Shown piece after piece: positions 17,301 through 59,709 of a stretch of DNA of 64,000 nucleotides. Every line of letters begins with the position of its first letter. Within the stretch, counting starts at the first letter, position 1. The translations under genes and the position numbers were made by a program. The stretch is taken from the NCBI GenBank assembly GCA_965207735.1, contig OZ242296.1, positions 2,752,001-2,816,000 of the forward strand, read 5' to 3'. This DNA is from Candidatus Versatilivorator sp. (GTDB lineage Bacteria > Acidobacteriota > Terriglobia > Versatilivoradales > Versatilivoraceae). The notes under the pieces were generated by a model. That model had not been told where the DNA came from. It searched no databases and worked only from the letters and a program-made list of their open reading frames with translations.

Positions 17301-17789
17301 TCCAGTCTACCGGGATGAAGGTCAGCGAGGCGGGCAACGGAGTCAGATCGCTGTTGTCACTATTTGCTGCCAGAACGACGGCGTGTGTGGGTTTGCTTGT
17401 CAGCACAACGGTGTAGGCTTTCGATGCCCCTTCAGGAATGGACAAGTTGGTGGGGGTTATCCTGACCCCGACACTGTCATCATCTCTGACAGAGATGCGG
17501 ACGGCTCTCAACATCAGGCCATCATAGGCTCCATCCGAGCTGATGGTTGAATGGGCCAGCATGGCGATGTCATCTGCCGCATCATCGTCGGAAGCAGCGT
17601 CCACGGCTACGGTCCGGGGTTGGTCCCAATTGGATCCGGTAAAGGTCAAGGTTCCTTGCCTGACGCTGATGTCCGGGTCCCCGCTGTGAGTGATGGTGAT
17701 GGTCACATCGTGGGAAGGTTGTGAAGTCAGAACTACCTGATAGCTGTCGCTGCCTCCCTCGGCAATAGTCAGCTTGGCCGGCAAGATCG

Positions 17790-20700
17790 ACACACGGGCG
17801 GTCTCGTCGTCGGTGACGCTCACGTCCACTTCTGAAATCCTGATTCCGTTGTAGTCCCCGTCGCTGCTGGTAACCGTGTGGCTGAATGTCGCCGTATCAT
17901 CTATGGCATCGTCATCTTGGGCTGCAGAGACTGTCACCATCTGCGCCATCTCCCAGTCGGAACCAGTGAAAGTCAACTCCTGGTCATCGATGCCAATGTC
18001 TCCATCCCCGCTACGACTGATAGTGATGGTCACGTCGTGGGAGGGCTCAGAGGTCAGGACCACCTCATAGCTGTCGCTGCTTCCTTCGGCAATGGTCAAT
18101 TGCGTTGGCCTGATCGACACACCCGCGGTCTCGTCATCGGTGACGGTCACGTCCACTTCCGCAGCCGTGATCCCGTTGTAGTCCCCATCGCCGCTGGTAA
18201 CCGTGTGGCTGAACGTCGCCGTATCGTCGACGGCATCGTCATCTTGGGCTGCAGAGACTGTCACCATCTGCGCCGTCGCCCAGTTGGAACCAGTGAAAGC
18301 CAACTCCTGGTCATCGATGCCAATGTCTCCATCCCCGCTGTGGGTGATGGTGACCGTTACTTCGTGGGTCGGTTGCGAGGTCAACACCACCTCATAGCTG
18401 TCACCGTCTCCTTCAGCGATGGTCAGTTGCGTTGGCGTGATCGAAACGCCCGCGGTCTCGTCATCGGTGACGGTCACGTCCACTTCCGCAACAGCGATAC
18501 CGCTGTAGTCCGAGTCGGTGCTGGAAACGCTGTGGCTGAACGTCGCCGTGTCATCGATGGCATCGTCGTCCTGGCCAGCGGAGACTGTCACCATCTGCGC
18601 CGTCGCCCAGTCGGAACCAGTGAAAGCCAACTCCTGGTCATCGATGCCAATGTCTCCATCCCCGCTGCGGGTGATGGTGACCGTTACTTCGTGGGTCGGT
18701 TGCGAGGTCAACACCACCTCATAGCTGTCACCGTCTCCTTCAGCAATGGTCAGTTGCGTCGGTGTAATTGACACGCCGGCGGTCTCATCGTCGGTAACGG
18801 TGACATCCACTCCCGAAACCGTGATCCCGTTGTAGTCTGTATCGTTGCTAGCAACGCTGTGGCTGAACGTCGCCGTGTCATCGATGGCATCGTCGTCCTG
18901 GCCAGCGGAGACTGTCACCATCTGCGCCGTCGCCCAGTCGGAACCAGTGAAAGCCAACTCCTGGTCATCGATGCCAATGTCTCCATCCCCGCTGCGGGTG
19001 ATGGTGACCGTTACTTCGTGGGTCGGTTGCGAGGTCAACACCACCTCATAGCTGTCACCGTCTCCTTCAGCGATGGTCAGTTGCGTTGGCGTGATCGAAA
19101 CGCCCGCGGTCTCGTCATCGGTGACGGTCACGTCCACTTCCGCAACAGCGATACCGCTGTAGTCCGAGTCGGTGCTGGAAACGCTGTGGCTGAACGTCGC
19201 CGTGTCATCGATGGCATCGTCGTCCTGGCCAGCGGAGACTGTCACCGTTTGCGCCGTCGCCCAGTCGGAACCAGTGAAAGCCAACTCCTGGTCATCGATG
19301 CCAATGTCTCCATCCCCGCTGCGGGTGATGGTGACCGTTACTTCGTGGGTCGGTTGCGAGGTCAACACCACCTCATAGCTGTCACCGTCTCCTTCAGCGA
19401 TGGTCAGTTGCGTTGGCGTGATCGAAACGCCCGCGGTCTCGTCATCGGTGACGGTCACGTCCACTTCCGCAACAGCGATACCGCTGTAGTCCGAGTCGGT
19501 GCTGGAAACGCTGTGGCTGAACGTCGCCGTGTCATCGATGGCATCGTCGTCTTGGCCAGCAGAGACTGTCACCATCTGCGCCGTCGCCCAGTCGGAACCA
19601 GTGAAAGCCAACTCCTGGTCATCGATGCCAATGTCTCCATCCCCGCTGCGGGTGATGGTGACCGTTACTTCGTGGGTCGGTTGCGAGGTCAACACCACCT
19701 CATAGCTGTCACCGTCTCCTTCAGCAATGGTCAGTTGCGTCGGTGTAATTGACACGCCGGCGGTCTCATCGTCGGTAACGGTGACATCCACTCCCGAAAC
19801 CGTGATCCCGTTGTAGTCTGTATCGTTGCTAGCAACGCTGTGGCTGAACGTCGCCGTGTCATCGATGGCATCGTCGTCCTGGCCAGCGGAGACTGTCACC
19901 GTTTGCGCCGTCGCCCAGTCGGAACCAGTGAAAGCCAACTCCTGGTCATCGATGCCAATGTCTCCATCCCCGCTGCGGGTGATGGTGACCGTTACTTCGT
20001 GGGTCGGTTGCGAGGTCAACACCACCTCATAGCTGTCACCGTCTCCTTCAGCGATGGTCAGTTGCGTTGGCGTGATCGAAACGCCCGCGGTCTCGTCATC
20101 GGTGACGGTCACGTCCACTTCCGCAACAGCGATACCGCTGTAGTCCGAGTCGGTGCTGGAAACGCTGTGGCTGAACGTCGCCGTGTCATCGATGGCGTCG
20201 TCATCTTGGGCCGCAGAAACCGTCACCGTCTGCGCTTGGTTCCAGTCGGAGTCACTGAAGGTCAGCTCCGGATCATCTAGGCTGATGTCCGCATCCCCGA
20301 TGCGGGTGATGGTGATGGTCACGTCGTGGGCGGGCTCGGAGGTCAGGACTACCTCGTAGCTGTCGTTGCTTCCTTCGGCAATGGTCAATTGCGTTGGCCT
20401 GATCGACACACCGGCGGTCTAGTCATCGGTGACGGTCACGTCCACTTCCGCAGCCGTGATCCCGTTGTAGTCCCCATCGCCGCTGGTAACCGTGTGGCTG
20501 AACGTCGCCGTATCGTCGACGGCATCGTCATCTTGGGCTGCAGAGACTGTCACCATCTGCGCCGTCGCCCAGTTGGAACCAGTGAAAGCCAACTCCTGGT
20601 CATCGATGCCAATGTCTCCATCCCCGCTGTGGGTGATGGTGACCGCTACTTCGTGGGTCGGTTGCGAGGTCAACACCACCTCATAGCTGTCACCGTCTCC

Positions 20701-21400
20701 TTCAGCGATGGTCAGTTGCGTTGGCGTGATCGAAACGCCCGCGGTCTCGTCATCGGTGACGGTCACGTCCACTTCCGCAACAGCGATACCGCTGTAGTCC
20801 GAGTCGGTGCTGGAAACGCTGTGGCTGAACGTCGCCGTGTCATCGATGGCATCGTCGTCCTGGCCAGCGGAGACTGTCACCATCTGCGCCGTCGCCCAGT
20901 CGGAACCAGTGAAAGCCAACTCCTGGTCATCGATGCCAATGTCTCCATCCCCGCTGCGGGTGATGGTGACCGTTACTTCGTGGGTAGGTTGCGAGGTCAA
21001 CACCACCTCATAGCTGTCACCGTGCCCTTCAGCGATGGTCAGTTGCGTTGGCGTGATTGACACGCCCGCAGTCTCATCGTCGGTGACGGTGACGTCCACA
21101 TCCGAAACCGTGATCCCGTTGTAGTCCGCATCGTTGCTAGCAACGGTGTGGCTGAGCGTGGCCATATCATCGATGGCGTCGTCGTCATGTGAGGCCGAGA
21201 CTGTCACCGCCTGCGTTTGGCTCCAATCAGAGTCACTGAAGGTCAACTCCTGGTCATCGATGCTGATGTCCTGGTCCCCGCTGTGGGTGATGGTGATCGT
21301 CACATCGTGGGACGGCTTCGAGGTCAGTACGACATCGTAGCTGTCGCTGCCTCCTTCGGCAATGGTCAGCCGCGTTGGCGCGATTGACACGCCGGCCGAA
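17790..21400 (-). repeat. About 11 near-identical 327-bp (109-aa) tandem coding repeats, followed by about 6 diverged copies toward the C-terminus
   Basis: Unit GVSITPTQLTIAEGDGDSYEVVLTSQP...VDVTVTDDETA; shadow ORFs recur every 327 bp (18518, 18845, 19172, 19499, 19826, 20153). Confidence 0.95.
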
Positions 21401-22409
21401 TCGTCATCGGTCAGATTCACGGAGAGCGGGGCGCTGTCCCGATAGCCATCGGCGCCGGCGATGAGTCTTATTTCCTCGGCGCCCTCGACAACAGAGTCAT
21501 CGACAACGGTCAACTCCGCTTCACCGGAGGTTGCCCCGCTTTCAATGGTCAGCATGGCTACCGTATAGTCGGTTTCGTTGGCAGCCCGACCTGAATGAGT
21601 CAGGTTGATGGTCAGGTCATCGACCGGCTCTTCGCCGCTGGCAACGGCAGCAGTGACCGTAGCTGTCCCGTCCGGCTCCGAAACACTGGTCTGATCGCTT
21701 GCGAGGGTGATTGCTGGCAGCGGTGGCGGCTCGTCGTTGTCACGGATGTTCACGGACACGCCGGAGATGGATATGCCGGAACAACCCTCGTCGGTACTGG
21801 ATGCCGTGTGGGCGATGGTTGCCCTGCCGTCGGAAGCATCGTCATCCTCACCTGCCTCCATCGTTACCCGTTGGGAAATATGCCAGTTCGCGGTGGTGAA
21901 GGTAAGAGAGGGTCTGTCTGCCGACAGGCTGGGGTCGCCTGTCAGGTCGAGCGTGATGGTAACGCTTGCCGAAGGGCTTGTGGCTAATACCACGTCGTAG
22001 TAGGCGCCATTGCTGTCCCCCTCATCGATGGTGAGACGGGTGGGCGTGACGGTTGCTCCGCAGCCGTCGGTATCGTCGTCGGCAACATTGACCGTGACGC
22101 CAACGGCAGCACCGCCATAGGACGAGGGAGGGGTATTGGTAATCCTTGCCTGCCCGGTTGCCGTACCCGATTGTTCGTCCGCGAAGACCTGAACGGGTTG
22201 ATCCCTGTTCCAGTCGGTCGTAGTGAAGGTGAGGGAGGATGTGTTTTTTTTCACCCTTGAGTCTCCTCCGGATTCGATGTCTACCGCGACGGTGACATCA
22301 CCGCTCGGCCTCGTTTTCAGCCTTACGTTATAGGTCTCTCCGGTAGTTCCCTCAGTAATATTGAGCGTCGTGGGTGTGACGGAGAGACCCGGGCTAGAGG
22401 CTCGGCTTC

Positions 22410-55934: not shown

Positions 55935-56205
55935 GTCGGTACCGGGGAATCCATGTTGATGGTCGCTGCAAATCACGAAGGCGCGGGGGCGGGGGCCCGG
56001 CTTGTCTGAAACAAACGAAAAAAGACTAGAGAAAAAGAGGAATCCACGAAGACACACGAAGGACGACGAAGGGCCACTAAGGCGCTGAGGTTAACCGCGA
56101 CGGGGTACCAAGATCGCGAAGGGATGGTCGATTTCTGATTGTTTCACTCTCGGATGATCCGCCCGGCAGGGCGGGGGCCTCGCTTGCCTGAAACAACCCC
56201 GCAGT

Positions 56206-57600
56206 TCAAGCGGCTGCGATTTGTGGAACTAGGTTGAAACCAAGAGACTTAGCAGCATCTTTGAGGCCCGCGAGGCGGCGTCTCCGGAACCGGTCTTCGT
56301 AGCACGCTTCCCCGATGTCGATGTAGTCCTGGCCGTAGCGCAGCATGCGGTAGACGAGAACGGCCAGCCGGCGGGCCATGGAGAAGACGGCGACGGTCCA
56401 TCCCTTGTGGCGGGCCTTGCGACGGAAGGCGGCCCCCAGAGCGGTCTTGGAGTGCTTCAGAGAGACGGCTGCCATGCGCAGGACGGCGGCGGCGCGAGTA
56501 GACCCGGTGCTGTTGGCCTTCTTGTAGTGGAGCGGCTTGCCTGCGGAGACGGCCGTTTTTGGAGCCAGGCGCAGCCAGGATACAAAGTGCTTCTCCGAGG
56601 GGAAGGCCGTCAGGTCGAGGCCGGCCTCAGTCAGCAGGGTCAGGGCCGCTTCGGTGCCGATGCCGTCGATGCGCGTCAGATCGACCCCGGCAAAGCGCCA
56701 CAGTTCGGTGCGCAGGTGGTGCCCGCCTCGGCGGCTAATCGCCTTTTCCTTGATCGCATTGGGATGCTTCGGCACGGGCTGGTCGCGGCGCTCCACCGGT
56801 TGCAGCGCTTGGATTTCCTCCAGAATGCGGGCCTCATAGGCCGCAATCTCGCGTTGAGTCATGTCGTAGAGCTTCAGCGCCGACTTGAGGTTGAACAGAT
56901 GCTCGTCGCGCCAGTTGCCCGTGAGGTGCTCGGCAAACTCCCGGCTGGACTTCTTGCACCGTCGGTCCCGCAGACCCGCCAGACGGACCGGGTCCCGTTC
57001 GCCGTCGACAATCGCCCGCACGATCGCCATCCCCGTCTGACCGGTCAGATCGGTGACCGCACGATGGATCTGGACGTTCATCTGATCCAGCGCCTTCTGC
57101 ATCCACTGCACAAAGCGGGTACTCTCGGCCCCCAGAGTGCTCAGTTGCCGGTGCAGGGTCCGAACCCGGACGATCGCCTCGTGCGGACGGAAGGATCCCC
57201 GCAGCAAGCCGCAGCTGTGCAGCAACTGGATCCACTGGCAGTCCTGCATGTCGGTCTTGCGGCCCGGAACGTAGCGCAACTGCCGGGCGTTGACCAGCAG
57301 CACCTCGATGCCGCAGGACTCCAGCAGTTCGTAGAGGGGAATCCAATACACGTTGGTGCTCTCCATCGCCACCGACTCCACCCCTTGCTCCAGCAACCAG
57401 TCGGCCAGATGCTGCAACTGCGGCATGGTGGTGCCGAAGGTGCGCACGTTCGGCTTCCCTGGGGTTACCTCCGGAGCGCACACCCAGTGCTCCCGACTCC
57501 CCAGGTCGATCCCTGCCACCTCGGGGTGGATCCGCGACAAGGCCGTCGAACGGCTGCGCTTCTTCTTCGCCTTCGTGTTGACTTTCCTGCTCTTTTGCAT
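56206..57600 (-). CDS. IS110 family DEDD recombinase/transposase
   Basis: GIDLG, MESTNVYW, KTDMQD, IDGIG, SAGK serine motif; GAGGAGG RBS. Confidence 0.96.
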   Translation of the reverse strand: MQKSRKVNTKAKKKRSRSTALSRIHPEVAGIDLGSREHWVCAPEVTPGKPNVRTFGTTMPQLQHLADWLLEQGVESVAMESTNVYWIPLYELLESCGIEVLLVNARQLRYVPGRKTDMQDCQWIQLLHSCGLLRGSFRPHEAIVRVRTLHRQLSTLGAESTRFVQWMQKALDQMNVQIHRAVTDLTGQTGMAIVRAIVDGERDPVRLAGLRDRRCKKSSREFAEHLTGNWRDEHLFNLKSALKLYDMTQREIAAYEARILEEIQALQPVERRDQPVPKHPNAIKEKAISRRGGHHLRTELWRFAGVDLTRIDGIGTEAALTLLTEAGLDLTAFPSEKHFVSWLRLAPKTAVSAGKPLHYKKANSTGSTRAAAVLRMAAVSLKHSKTALGAAFRRKARHKGWTVAVFSMARRLAVLVYRMLRYGQDYIDIGEACYEDRFRRRRLAGLKDAAKSLGFNLVPQIAAA

Positions 57601-57604
57601 GAGA

Positions 57605-57810
57605 TTGGCCTCCTCGAGAGCGAGGGCTCCGGCCCGAGTTGGCGTGGTCGTTCGGATTCTTGCCTTGAGGAGAACTTCCCGGGAAGCCTCACTAATGAAT
57701 GATGACCTGCTCGGACCCAGACTTGCCTTGGGGCACGGGGCACCAATGCTGAAACGGGGCGTAGCTGCCGGAGTCTCGCCAGGTGCTTATTCTTTCACAA
57801 TGAGCCGTTG
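57605..57810 (-). ncRNA. Candidate bridge RNA region of the IS110 element
   Basis: Non-coding end upstream of the recombinase; stem / internal loop / stem at 57610-57672 whose loop strands match the junction sequences. Confidence 0.55.
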
Positions 57811-58202
57811 TTTCACCCTCGAATGATCCGCCCCGTCGTGGGGGGCGGGGGCGGGACTTGCTTGAAACAACCGAAAAATGACAAGAGACAAAAGAAAAAG
57901 ACTTATCCACGAAGGGGCACGAAGAACGACGAAGGGGCACTAAGGCGCTGAGGTTAACCGCGACGGGGTACCAAGTTCGCGAAGGGTTGGTCGATTTCTG
58001 ATTGTTTCACTCTATGTATGATCCGCACGGCAGGGCGGGGGCTCGGCTTGCCTGAAACAAACGACAGACAAAACGACAAAAGAAAAAGACTTATCCACGA
58101 AGGGGCACGAAGAACGACGAAGGGACACTAAGGCGCTGAGGTTAACCGCGACGGGATGCCAAGGTCGCGACGGGATAGTCGATTTCCGATTGTTTCACTC
58201 TC

Positions 58203-58540
58203 CAGCCTTTTGCAATATTCAGCAGCGGGACCTTTGCCGGGAATGGCCACAAAAGGCACAAAAAACACAAAAAAGAGCAGAACACTGAAAGGCTGCAAGG
58301 CGTTGACTCCCGAACATGTCGCACAAGTTCCGCGCTATCTGCCTACATCCGGTCAACGCGACGCCATGGGGATCAACCTCGGATCGTCAAGACTCGAAAT
58401 CAAGAAATTCGTTTTGTGACTTTTGTGCTTTTTGTGGTGAACTCTCATTTTTCACCAGGTCGCACCCGATATTGGAAAAGGCAGAAGATCACGTTTACCG
58501 GCAAAATGACCTGCCCCACTGCCAATATTGCAAAACGCTC
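58203..58540. mobile_element. Non-autonomous MITE with IRs related to the IS in virB11, nested in array unit D
   Basis: Ends CAGCCTTTTGCAATATTC / CAATATTGCAAAACGCTC versus IS IR GAGCCTTTTGCAAAATTC; flanks TCTC/TTTC; removal restores the unit consensus. Confidence 0.7.
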
Positions 58541-58869
58541 TTTCGTATGATGCGCCCGGCAGGGCAGGGTCTGGGCTCGCGGGCAAACGGGAGTTTCCCA
58601 AAGGGCGCCGGTCAGCGTTCAGAGAAGCCGCCCCCCGGATACGCTCCGGCGCACCATCGGGACCCCCCCGGAGCGCATTCTCCCCTAACGGCGTGACACC
58701 AACGTCACAATATTGCAGAAGCATTCGGGCGCCGCTCGTCATTGAAGGAGCTCCATCCGTATTCGTGTGTATTCGTGTTCATTCGTGGTTCGTCTTTAGT
58801 TCCAAAACGAAAACGGCTGGCTGTTTCTCCTCTGAATGATCCGCCCCGTCGCGGGGGGCGGGGGCGGGG

Positions 58870-59709
58870 CTAGCCTGGAGATGATCGAGGTTGCTTTGAG
58901 GGCGCATCGGTCCCGCTCGGCTGGAGGAATTGCAGCGGTTTGGTTTCCAAGATCAGTTTCATTTCCCGAGCCAACCGGTAGAAGTGGCGCAACCCGTCCA
59001 GGTTTTCCTCGTCCAGCGAGTAATCGATGCACCGGGTAAGGTAGGAGTGAATCTGCTCATCGGGCAGCCCGAGTTGGAGAGACTGCTGTTGGACGATGTC
59101 GTCCAGGTGGGCTTGCCCGTAGCGGTAGGATGCCTCGAAGGGGGAACTGTCCTCCATCCCGGTTTCCGCGCGGCAGGCCCAGAAGGCAAACACAAAGGGC
59201 TTACCGGTCTCCTCGCTCCATGCTTCCGACAGATCGCAGCGGTAGAGGCCGCCGGTATCGACGGTCAGGGCGGCGTCGCCTATCAGAAGCGCTGCGTCGC
59301 GGTGGCGCAACATGGAAGCCAGTTCCGGCTCATGGGAGTAAAGGGACGGATTGAGCTGAAACTTCATCCTGAGCAATATGCGGAGGAGGACCACCGAGGT
59401 CCTTGAGGATCGATCCAGGGCGACGCTCCTGATTTGGGGCAGCGGCACTTTGCTGACTAGCAGGACGCTTCGGACCGTTCCCTTGGCTGCCACTGAAAGG
59501 TTGGGGACGATTCTGAGTTCGGGGATGCGTTGGTATTCGATGGCCGGGATCAGGCCGATGTCCACCAATCCGGCTGCTATTTTGTCGGCGCACAGCGCAG
59601 GGGGAGAGAAGTCCAGATCAAAGCGGTCTTTCGGCCGGTTGTGGATAAAGCCCCAGGACAGCGGCAGCGCATTGAGGTAGCCGACGATTGAGAGCTTGAG
59701 TTTCCTCAC
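58870..59709 (-). CDS. mqnA: Chorismate dehydratase (futalosine menaquinone pathway)
   Basis: YLNALPL, GLIPAIEY, VRSVLL, SSRTSVVL, LLIGDAAL, DLSEAW, PFVFAFW. Confidence 0.9.
   Translation of the reverse strand: MRKLKLSIVGYLNALPLSWGFIHNRPKDRFDLDFSPPALCADKIAAGLVDIGLIPAIEYQRIPELRIVPNLSVAAKGTVRSVLLVSKVPLPQIRSVALDRSSRTSVVLLRILLRMKFQLNPSLYSHEPELASMLRHRDAALLIGDAALTVDTGGLYRCDLSEAWSEETGKPFVFAFWACRAETGMEDSSPFEASYRYGQAHLDDIVQQQSLQLGLPDEQIHSYLTRCIDYSLDEENLDGLRHFYRLAREMKLILETKPLQFLQPSGTDAPSKQPRSSPG

Follow-up and report, generated by a model that had tools for sequence, protein, structure and literature searches.

The IS110 element carried by the 64,000-nucleotide stretch of a Candidatus Versatilivorator sp. 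genome analysed here (hereafter, the window) is accompanied by a predicted two-loop bridge RNA, in which the target guide and the right end of the element itself are identical in sequence. On sequence comparison, we hold it reasonably probable that this element inserts behind existing copies, giving rise to head-to-tail arrays, and that its donor is a folded single strand. An initial annotation of the window had proposed a bridge RNA programmed against the element's own end; the motifs on which it was built lie where it had placed them (AAGGCAAG at 57659-57666 and 57722-57729; ATCATTC at 57697-57703 and 57821-57827; CCTCGCT at 57619-57625; AGGCA-AG-CGAGG at 56178-56189), and a bridge-RNA-like RNA with two loops, whose guides covary with target and donor, is indeed predicted.

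The element is intact and occurs in 10 copies, belonging to three variants, in the source's complete 5.26-Mb genome (97-100% amino acid identity, common ends, variable flanks). Its left end comprises 256 non-coding nt and its right end 21 nt, with AG at both junctions in 10/10 copies, denoting the anatomy of the IS110 group, in which a long non-coding left end, a short right end and a shared dinucleotide core are found. The boundaries given in Table 1, with AG as core, were assigned because 10/10 genomic copies, whose right flanks differ, carry a GC segment of 41 nt on the upstream side of the left inverted repeat; because this segment lies within the element at homologue loci L017-L025, which are located inside heptamer repeats; and because the MITE at the mqnA-rnhA locus of relative G002 (locus L053) begins with it, at the same AG. 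Moreover, a 1-nt indel in the GC segment follows the IS variant among the 10 copies. Judged from these copies, the GC-rich segment is the left end of the element, as the self-targeting proposal implied, and not a pre-existing REP target, an alternative with which a segment that travels with the element is at odds. The closest homologues of the recombinase (88-98%) were mostly records of Terriglobia or Candidatus Versatilivorator.

Table 1. Features of the IS110 element, its predicted bridge RNA and the surrounding array (positions in the window)
Feature	Position	Strand	Remark
Whole IS110 element	56185..57856	minus	between two AG cores
AG cores of the element	57857-57858 and 56183-56184		CT on plus strand
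Left-end spacer, 8 nt after core	57849..57856	minus	AG stops exactly 8 nt before stem in 193/278 genomic left ends
Left-end GC hairpin, 7-bp stem	57828..57848	minus	paired-base variation in stem
Left-end site matched by X2	57821..57827	minus	covariation with donor loop guide
Left sub-terminal inverted repeat, ~41 nt inside end	57807..57815	minus	complementary to 56189-56197
Predicted bridge RNA core	57619..57780	minus	closing stem GGCGAG-CTCCGGC (57767-57780) / GCCGGAG-CTCGCT (57619-57633)
Target loop 5' guide X0 (TTTCAGCA)	57747..57754	minus	weak canonical pairing with right flank
Target loop core-side guide Y1 (AAGGCAAG) and handshake dinucleotide TC	57720..57729	minus	matches outer left flank
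Donor loop 5' guide X2 (ATCATTCA)	57696..57703	minus	same sense as own site inside left end
Donor loop core-side guide Y2 (AAGGCAAG) and AA	57657..57666	minus	equals right end
GAGGAGG, outer stem of the initial annotation	57609..57615	minus	8 nt before ATG
IS110 recombinase, 464 aa	56206..57600	minus	DEDD (D32, E80, D117, D120) and S352
Right end: inverted repeat, AGGCA, core AG	56183..56197	minus	identical to both core-side guides
MITE downstream of the IS	56003..56182	minus	left end begins CGAGG, the "right flank" of the initial annotation
MITE whose right end is the IS insertion site	57859..58046	minus
MITE interrupted at X2 site by ~330-bp foreign element	58049..58575	minus	insert about 58203-58540, own inverted ends
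Degenerate first element of array	58578..58871	minus	same junction in G002 (L053) with single MITE

The recombinase carries PF01548 and PF02371 (NF033542 above cut-off), that is, a DEDD RuvC-like domain and a Tnp domain with a conserved serine, as in the IS110 group. Among 68 homologous sequences, D32, E80, D117 and D120 were invariant and S352 was at least 90% conserved. The predicted model (pLDDT 87) found its best structural matches in IS621 and ISCro4 (TM 0.75-0.78 by target), and would share with IS621 and ISCro4/IS622 the DEDD plus serine recombinase fold (PDB 8wt6, 9t56). TIGR-TasR and Nop5-family chains also appeared among the matches of the fold search.

The bridge RNA is predicted upstream of the recombinase gene, and not downstream as in the IS1111 group. 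By nhmmer the RNA family was matched in 114/135 loci, down to about 45% protein identity, the 21 loci without a match being mostly truncated contigs or proteins near 40% identity; the 108 matches with all guide columns formed 60 groups at 90% identity, of which 54 had upstream DNA for the guide tests (6 lacking) and 49 of these a right end. Ends were also called blind to the guides, by a rule drawn up after the pattern had been seen, in 49/54 groups (5 not called), 9 of the 49 being without a usable right end. No Rfam family matched the bridge RNA region, and the promoter scan found no sigma-70 consensus. In 4 of the 24 public runs listed, which consisted of contigs, no usable sign of a circle or a transcript emerged; one metatranscriptome contig covers part of the predicted RNA. 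Both loops (57657-57760) are framed by CCA...TG(G) motifs, which we take to be reminiscent of box C/D and TIGR repeats.

Regarding the fold, the closing stems GGCGAG/CTCGCT, CTCCGGC/GCCGGAG and CCGAG/CTCGG were paired in 88.9% of cells, with 8 double-changed pairs across 17 homologues (0/500 shuffles). The loop drawn previously, CTCCTC/GAGGAG with TCCG/CGGA, reached 75.7% of cells and 2 double-changed pairs in the same homologues, a value attained by 171/500 shuffles, and TCCG/CGGA pairing was present in 122/207 cells of 54 representatives. That loop occurs in the single-sequence MFE fold, whose overall z was 0.47; the homologues favour the other closing stems, and GAGGAGG would most simply be a Shine-Dalgarno sequence. 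In the favoured fold, each of the two loops presents, from 5' to 3', a 5' guide, a small hairpin and a 3' guide, and the target loop precedes the donor loop. Two loops whose guides covary with target and donor are the hallmark of canonical bridge RNAs. The earlier idea of a guide shared by both loops holds for the core-side guide; the two AAGGCAAG copies belong to different loops, each on the 3' side.

In the donor loop, Y2 equalled the right end in 46/49 groups (363/2352 non-cognate comparisons) and in 24/25 close copies; the handshake of this loop was not significant (1936/20000). X2 matched the 8 nt after the left-end hairpin on the same strand, at 6.92 of 8 positions against 4.62 when permuted (49 divergent groups; 0/20000), and within sub-clades at 6.41 against 4.77 (n=29) and 6.29 against 5.96 (n=17; 70/20000). 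Read canonically, on the opposite strand beside the core, X2 was at or below chance in 3 registers. In 23 tree-independent pairs, X2 and its site changed together and in matching fashion 13 times, within 8 of the pairs (null mean 0.9; 0/10000), and 5 further double changes were unmatched; with 21 changes restricted to the DNA site and 6 restricted to the RNA, X2 pairing tolerates mismatches. In MITE copies the site varies at position 6. ATCATTC, previously tied to a REP-target junction, covaries across homologues and is a real guide, which belongs to the donor loop and has its site in the same sense. The element belongs to the IS110 group, but its RNA lacks one of the traits by which canonical bridge RNAs are defined, namely a donor loop that pairs both strands directly beside the core.

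The left end follows a constant order of core, 8 nt, hairpin of 12-21 nt, X2 site and repeat. Its hairpin varies by paired bases: pair 2 of the stem is CG in 169/216 and TA in 29/216 genomic ends, and pair 4 is GC in 30/49 and CG in 17/49 homologues. A sub-terminal inverted repeat of 5-10 nt was present in 40/40 homologues. The distance from hairpin base to left repeat is 12-13 nt in 45/49 homologues, while hairpin length varies from 12 to 21 nt, which suggests that repeats and guide sites come into register only when the strand folds back. Likewise, since both donor guides match one DNA strand (CT), the joined ends would be read as a folded single strand. The predicted junction of the window folds with both stems (-17.0 kcal/mol), and among 40 predicted junctions 26 fold with both hairpin and inverted-repeat stem (P>0.5) and 14 do not.

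The same guides could act on a donor that stays duplex, with the hairpin extruding or the DNA looping and X2 engaging a supercoiled circle in a second bubble, some 30 nt away from its core, and we regard this as unlikely, albeit the foremost competitor. Covariation yields strand and position, not strandedness, and known IS110 donors have been described as duplex circles in the accessible portions of the literature. There, CazIS110 is reported to integrate duplex donors about 20-fold better at one junction (10.1101/2025.10.25.684509), which speaks against fold-back, as does the finding that mutation of the ISPpu9 A-box palindrome left circles detectable by end-point PCR (PMC12288879); furthermore, ISPpu10 employs a stem-loop in a duplex target (10.64898/2026.03.19.712850). 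Against a duplex donor stands the repeat-hairpin spacing, kept despite a variable hairpin and in register only if folded. In addition, single-strand excision with ssDNA circles reported for IS621 (10.64898/2026.08.31.748434) and top-strand integration reported for CazIS110 (10.1101/2025.10.25.684509), both as given in the accessible text of these preprints, together render a single-strand donor plausible.

In the target loop, Y1 perfectly matched 7 nt of the outer left flank in 36/54 groups, compared with 43/2862 non-cognate pairs. The handshake of this loop agreed with the first bases of the left end at 1.10 of 2 positions against 0.71 (0/20000), its first base being the first base of the left end in 37/49 groups. 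X0 paired with the right flank in canonical orientation at 1.58 of 4 positions against 0.94 (45 groups; 0/20000), and as a free-position guide it gave no signal upstream or downstream. Covariation of the loops with flanks or ends, which the initial annotation had proposed as a check, holds for Y1, Y2 and X2, and not for CCTCGCT. In the window variant Y1 equals Y2, and in the other variants they differ by one G/A. As a trait of the whole clade self-targeting was rejected, since Y1 and Y2 agree within 1 mismatch in 5/54 homologue groups against 6.0 expected; by this comparison, matching target and donor guides are a peculiarity of the window's lineage.

Within this lineage, self-targeting is supported by the position of 26/26 close copies directly behind a right-end motif (TGTTTCA plus 7 nt), an adjacency that could partly reflect later MITE entry at the left junction or protein recognition of TGTTTCA, and by relatives that carry the MITE end and no IS. 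The latter comparison was informative for 4/6 IS sites (copies A3 and C1 were uninformative): G002 shows the MITE end and an identical flank without the IS at two sites (L166, L181), a third site holds a MITE array or is an untouched target in other relatives, and at a fourth relatives have MITE ends with 5 extra bases. Right ends make up 206 of 3925 loose guide matches in the source genome, so something beyond the 7-nt guide contributes, probably the TTTC repeat, which is also enriched at free MITE targets. Neither DNA-DNA homology between element spacer and right flank nor such a target duplication was detected (2.07 vs 2.01, n=58; 2.83 vs 2.80, n=59), and the right flanks of targets in the source genome were enriched neither in hairpins (18/105 vs 925/5000) nor in a hairpin plus guide site. 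ISPpu9-like insertion into host REP sequences was not seen, the targets being element right ends or unique DNA. Lagging-strand ssDNA was rejected as target, given the lack of replichore bias (80/150 clusters), on a skew curve that is noisy between 3.0 and 4.5 Mb; this lack also counts against the single-strand mechanism.

Arrays might instead grow mainly by donor-loop half-match reactions, tandem duplication or MITE re-entry at left junctions, which we consider improbable. Consistent with such growth, tandem non-coding units with one-sided donor matches lie beside many IS110s (10.64898/2026.08.14.744561) and donor-only reactions have been shown for IS621 (10.64898/2026.08.31.748434), as far as the accessible text of both preprints goes; moreover, the weakness of X0 leaves left junctions open as further targets. 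Nevertheless, it is Y1 and not Y2 that tracks the polymorphism of the upstream flank (G/A state 12/14 vs 3/12, p=0.004, among close copies that are not independent); 7/10 genomic IS copies stand last in their own array, and empty sites show the MITE first and the IS later; and in the divergent tandem pairs L121, L045, L033 and L036 the Y1 of the second element equals the right end of the first. We therefore retain a target loop that reads right ends as the preferred account of array growth.

The source genome holds 278 left ends (216 well formed) and 222 strict right ends; a single cluster contains as many as 6 left ends. In contig data, array junctions mimic the predicted circle junction. Hairpin and X2 site are present in 211/224 element bodies, and 9 of the 13 bodies lacking them end there in the terminal motif of a foreign ~330-bp element, whose ends were also found in the MITE T-tract. 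Fifteen minimal elements of 60-65 nt keep hairpin and X2 site and have little besides the two ends; some stand in tandem, and such elements also occur at L002, L008 and L010.

Other features of these loci deserve mention. The first core AG of the window's array belongs to the stop codon of a mqnA-like gene (PF02621; 58870-58872), and in 7/13 relatives this gene lies directly against that for RNase H, with other inserts at the locus in 5 and a single MITE in G002. Tandem IS pairs are located at L121, L045, L044, L033, L036, L146 and L147, and the match of downstream Y1 to upstream right end, where present, amounts to cross-targeting of sister elements. At L017-L025, L109, L112, L115, L128, L133 and L141, and likewise in the source genome, elements sit in 7-nt tandem repeats equal to their own 7-nt target guide. 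Right flanks beginning xCAAG, a 5-nt echo of the right end, were found in 15/105 non-element flanks against 17/1574 background sites, and relatives differ by 5 nt at one site (L176, L180), which would denote slippage between two AGs 5 nt apart. Moreover, 19/105 right flanks resemble left ends truncated within the hairpin, including the last array junction of the window (55987-56000; orthologue L053); these are possibly products of single-strand transfer resolved at microhomology. Unrelated to the IS110 element, a 327-bp unit is repeated in tandem 12 times at positions 17626-21421 of the window (74-100% identity), and is probably the coding repeat of a large protein.

X2 and the hairpin could also serve another step, such as second-strand priming, a second nick or excision control, rather than donor engagement. 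The dispensability of the ISPpu9 palindrome for circle detection, as described in the accessible text (PMC12288879), and the tolerance of X2 for mismatches would agree with this, which we nevertheless deem very improbable, since the inner site has no conserved AG and no element class begins there, and the place of the left guide in the donor loop is taken by X2, which has C at position 7 like the core-pairing base of X0. As for the literal readings of the initial annotation, that CCTCGCT guides the right flank or that the GC segment was a REP target present beforehand and divided at the inner junction, they are scarcely credible: despite a 7-nt match in the window copy (chance about 2% for such a 7-mer in 206 nt), a match of CCCTCG to the inner junction and the MFE fold, CCTCGCT is the 3' strand of the RNA closing stem and pairs with GGCGAG at its 5' end, it matched the right flank in 1/25 close copies with a right end and in 0/40 divergent homologues (3.85 vs 3.80 permuted), the flank that it matches in the window is the start of the next MITE, and the RNA tail varies among variants while the inner junction is constant and the GC segment travels with the element.

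Under the folded-donor, self-targeting account, the CT strand (plus strand of the window) would be cut and rejoined at the cores into a circle, with a predicted junction GGCAAG|TCCCG. In the folded junction, the sub-terminal repeats would form an outer stem and the GC hairpin an inner one, separated by a bubble of roughly 12 by 14 nt in which the two guide sites lie opposite one another. X2 might then pair with the arm that folds back, which would stand in for the absent bottom strand, with Y2 pairing at the core. One strand would then be exchanged into duplex DNA, at a site that 7 nt of Y1, together with a TTTC preference just outside, would largely determine, and host replication or repair would complete the insertion. 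Since Y1 is here identical to Y2 or matches it by wobble, each insertion would create a right junction open to further insertion, both of the IS and of MITEs mobilised in trans. In integron attC sites and IS200/IS605 ends, the recombinase also acts on a folded single strand and replication resolves the product; the enzymes are unrelated (tyrosine recombinase and HUH) and use no guide RNA for the folded site, and hence only an analogy is drawn. In the openly readable text of papers and preprints, neither a fold-back reading nor a same-strand donor guide was found.

Among known systems, the anatomy of the ends suggests kinship with ISPpu9 of Pseudomonas putida. According to the accessible text of the reports, ISPpu9 and MITEPpu9 have an AG core in gene sense and MITEs with the same ends (PMC12288879; PMC8450116), a 43-nt left-end A box composed of spacer, palindrome, ~12 nt and a repeat that is the complement of the B box, and a tandem MITE sharing AG, with circles that join B and A at AG (PMC12288879). 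There the A-box palindrome is left unexplained, guides are not mapped in the accessible text, and ISPpu9 targets host REPs (PMC12288879), whereas here the target guide equals the right end and there are >200 MITE ends. No record labelled ISPpu9 appeared among the 40 and the 60 listed of 265 plasmid matches.

With IS621 and ISCro4/IS622, as far as described in the accessible text, the element shares an RNA upstream of the gene, a target loop followed by a donor loop, a CT core on the exchanged strand and the handshake dinucleotide (PMC11208160; PMC13626964). Unlike IS621, whose loops each pair both strands beside the core (PMC11208160), the donor 5' guide here reads the same strand about 30 nt away, past the hairpin; further differences are a weak target 5' guide, ends that lie in inverted order with respect to the gene, and a protein about 140 aa longer. 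As in the ISPpu10 stem-loop gate, a DNA stem-loop beside the recombination site would be part of the system, but in the available account of ISPpu10 it is a part of the target that supplements canonical pairing, and here it lies in the donor end (10.64898/2026.03.19.712850). Finally, tandem non-coding units and tandem IS copies recall the expanded IS110 loci (n=468 and 437, respectively, in the accessible text of 10.64898/2026.08.14.744561).

On balance, we lean slightly towards the broader proposal that a wide IS110 clade recombines a folded ssDNA donor, made of about 60 nt of ends, into duplex DNA, with the target guide having converged in this lineage on the element's own right end, as a self-renewing safe-harbour array, and with sister elements programmed against each other's ends. 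If true, bridge recombinases would have a second donor-reading mode, in which one strand folds to mimic a duplex, bearing on the current dispute over single- and double-stranded IS110 intermediates and giving a testable role to the ISPpu9 A-box palindrome. Pipelines that search only near the core on opposite strands would then miscall guides and boundaries in this clade, and an ssDNA-donor insertion tool with very short ends could be conceived. Self-end targeting encoded in the guide, in turn, would show concretely how tandem MITE arrays can arise, and would be an exception to the claim that IS110 insertion destroys its own target.
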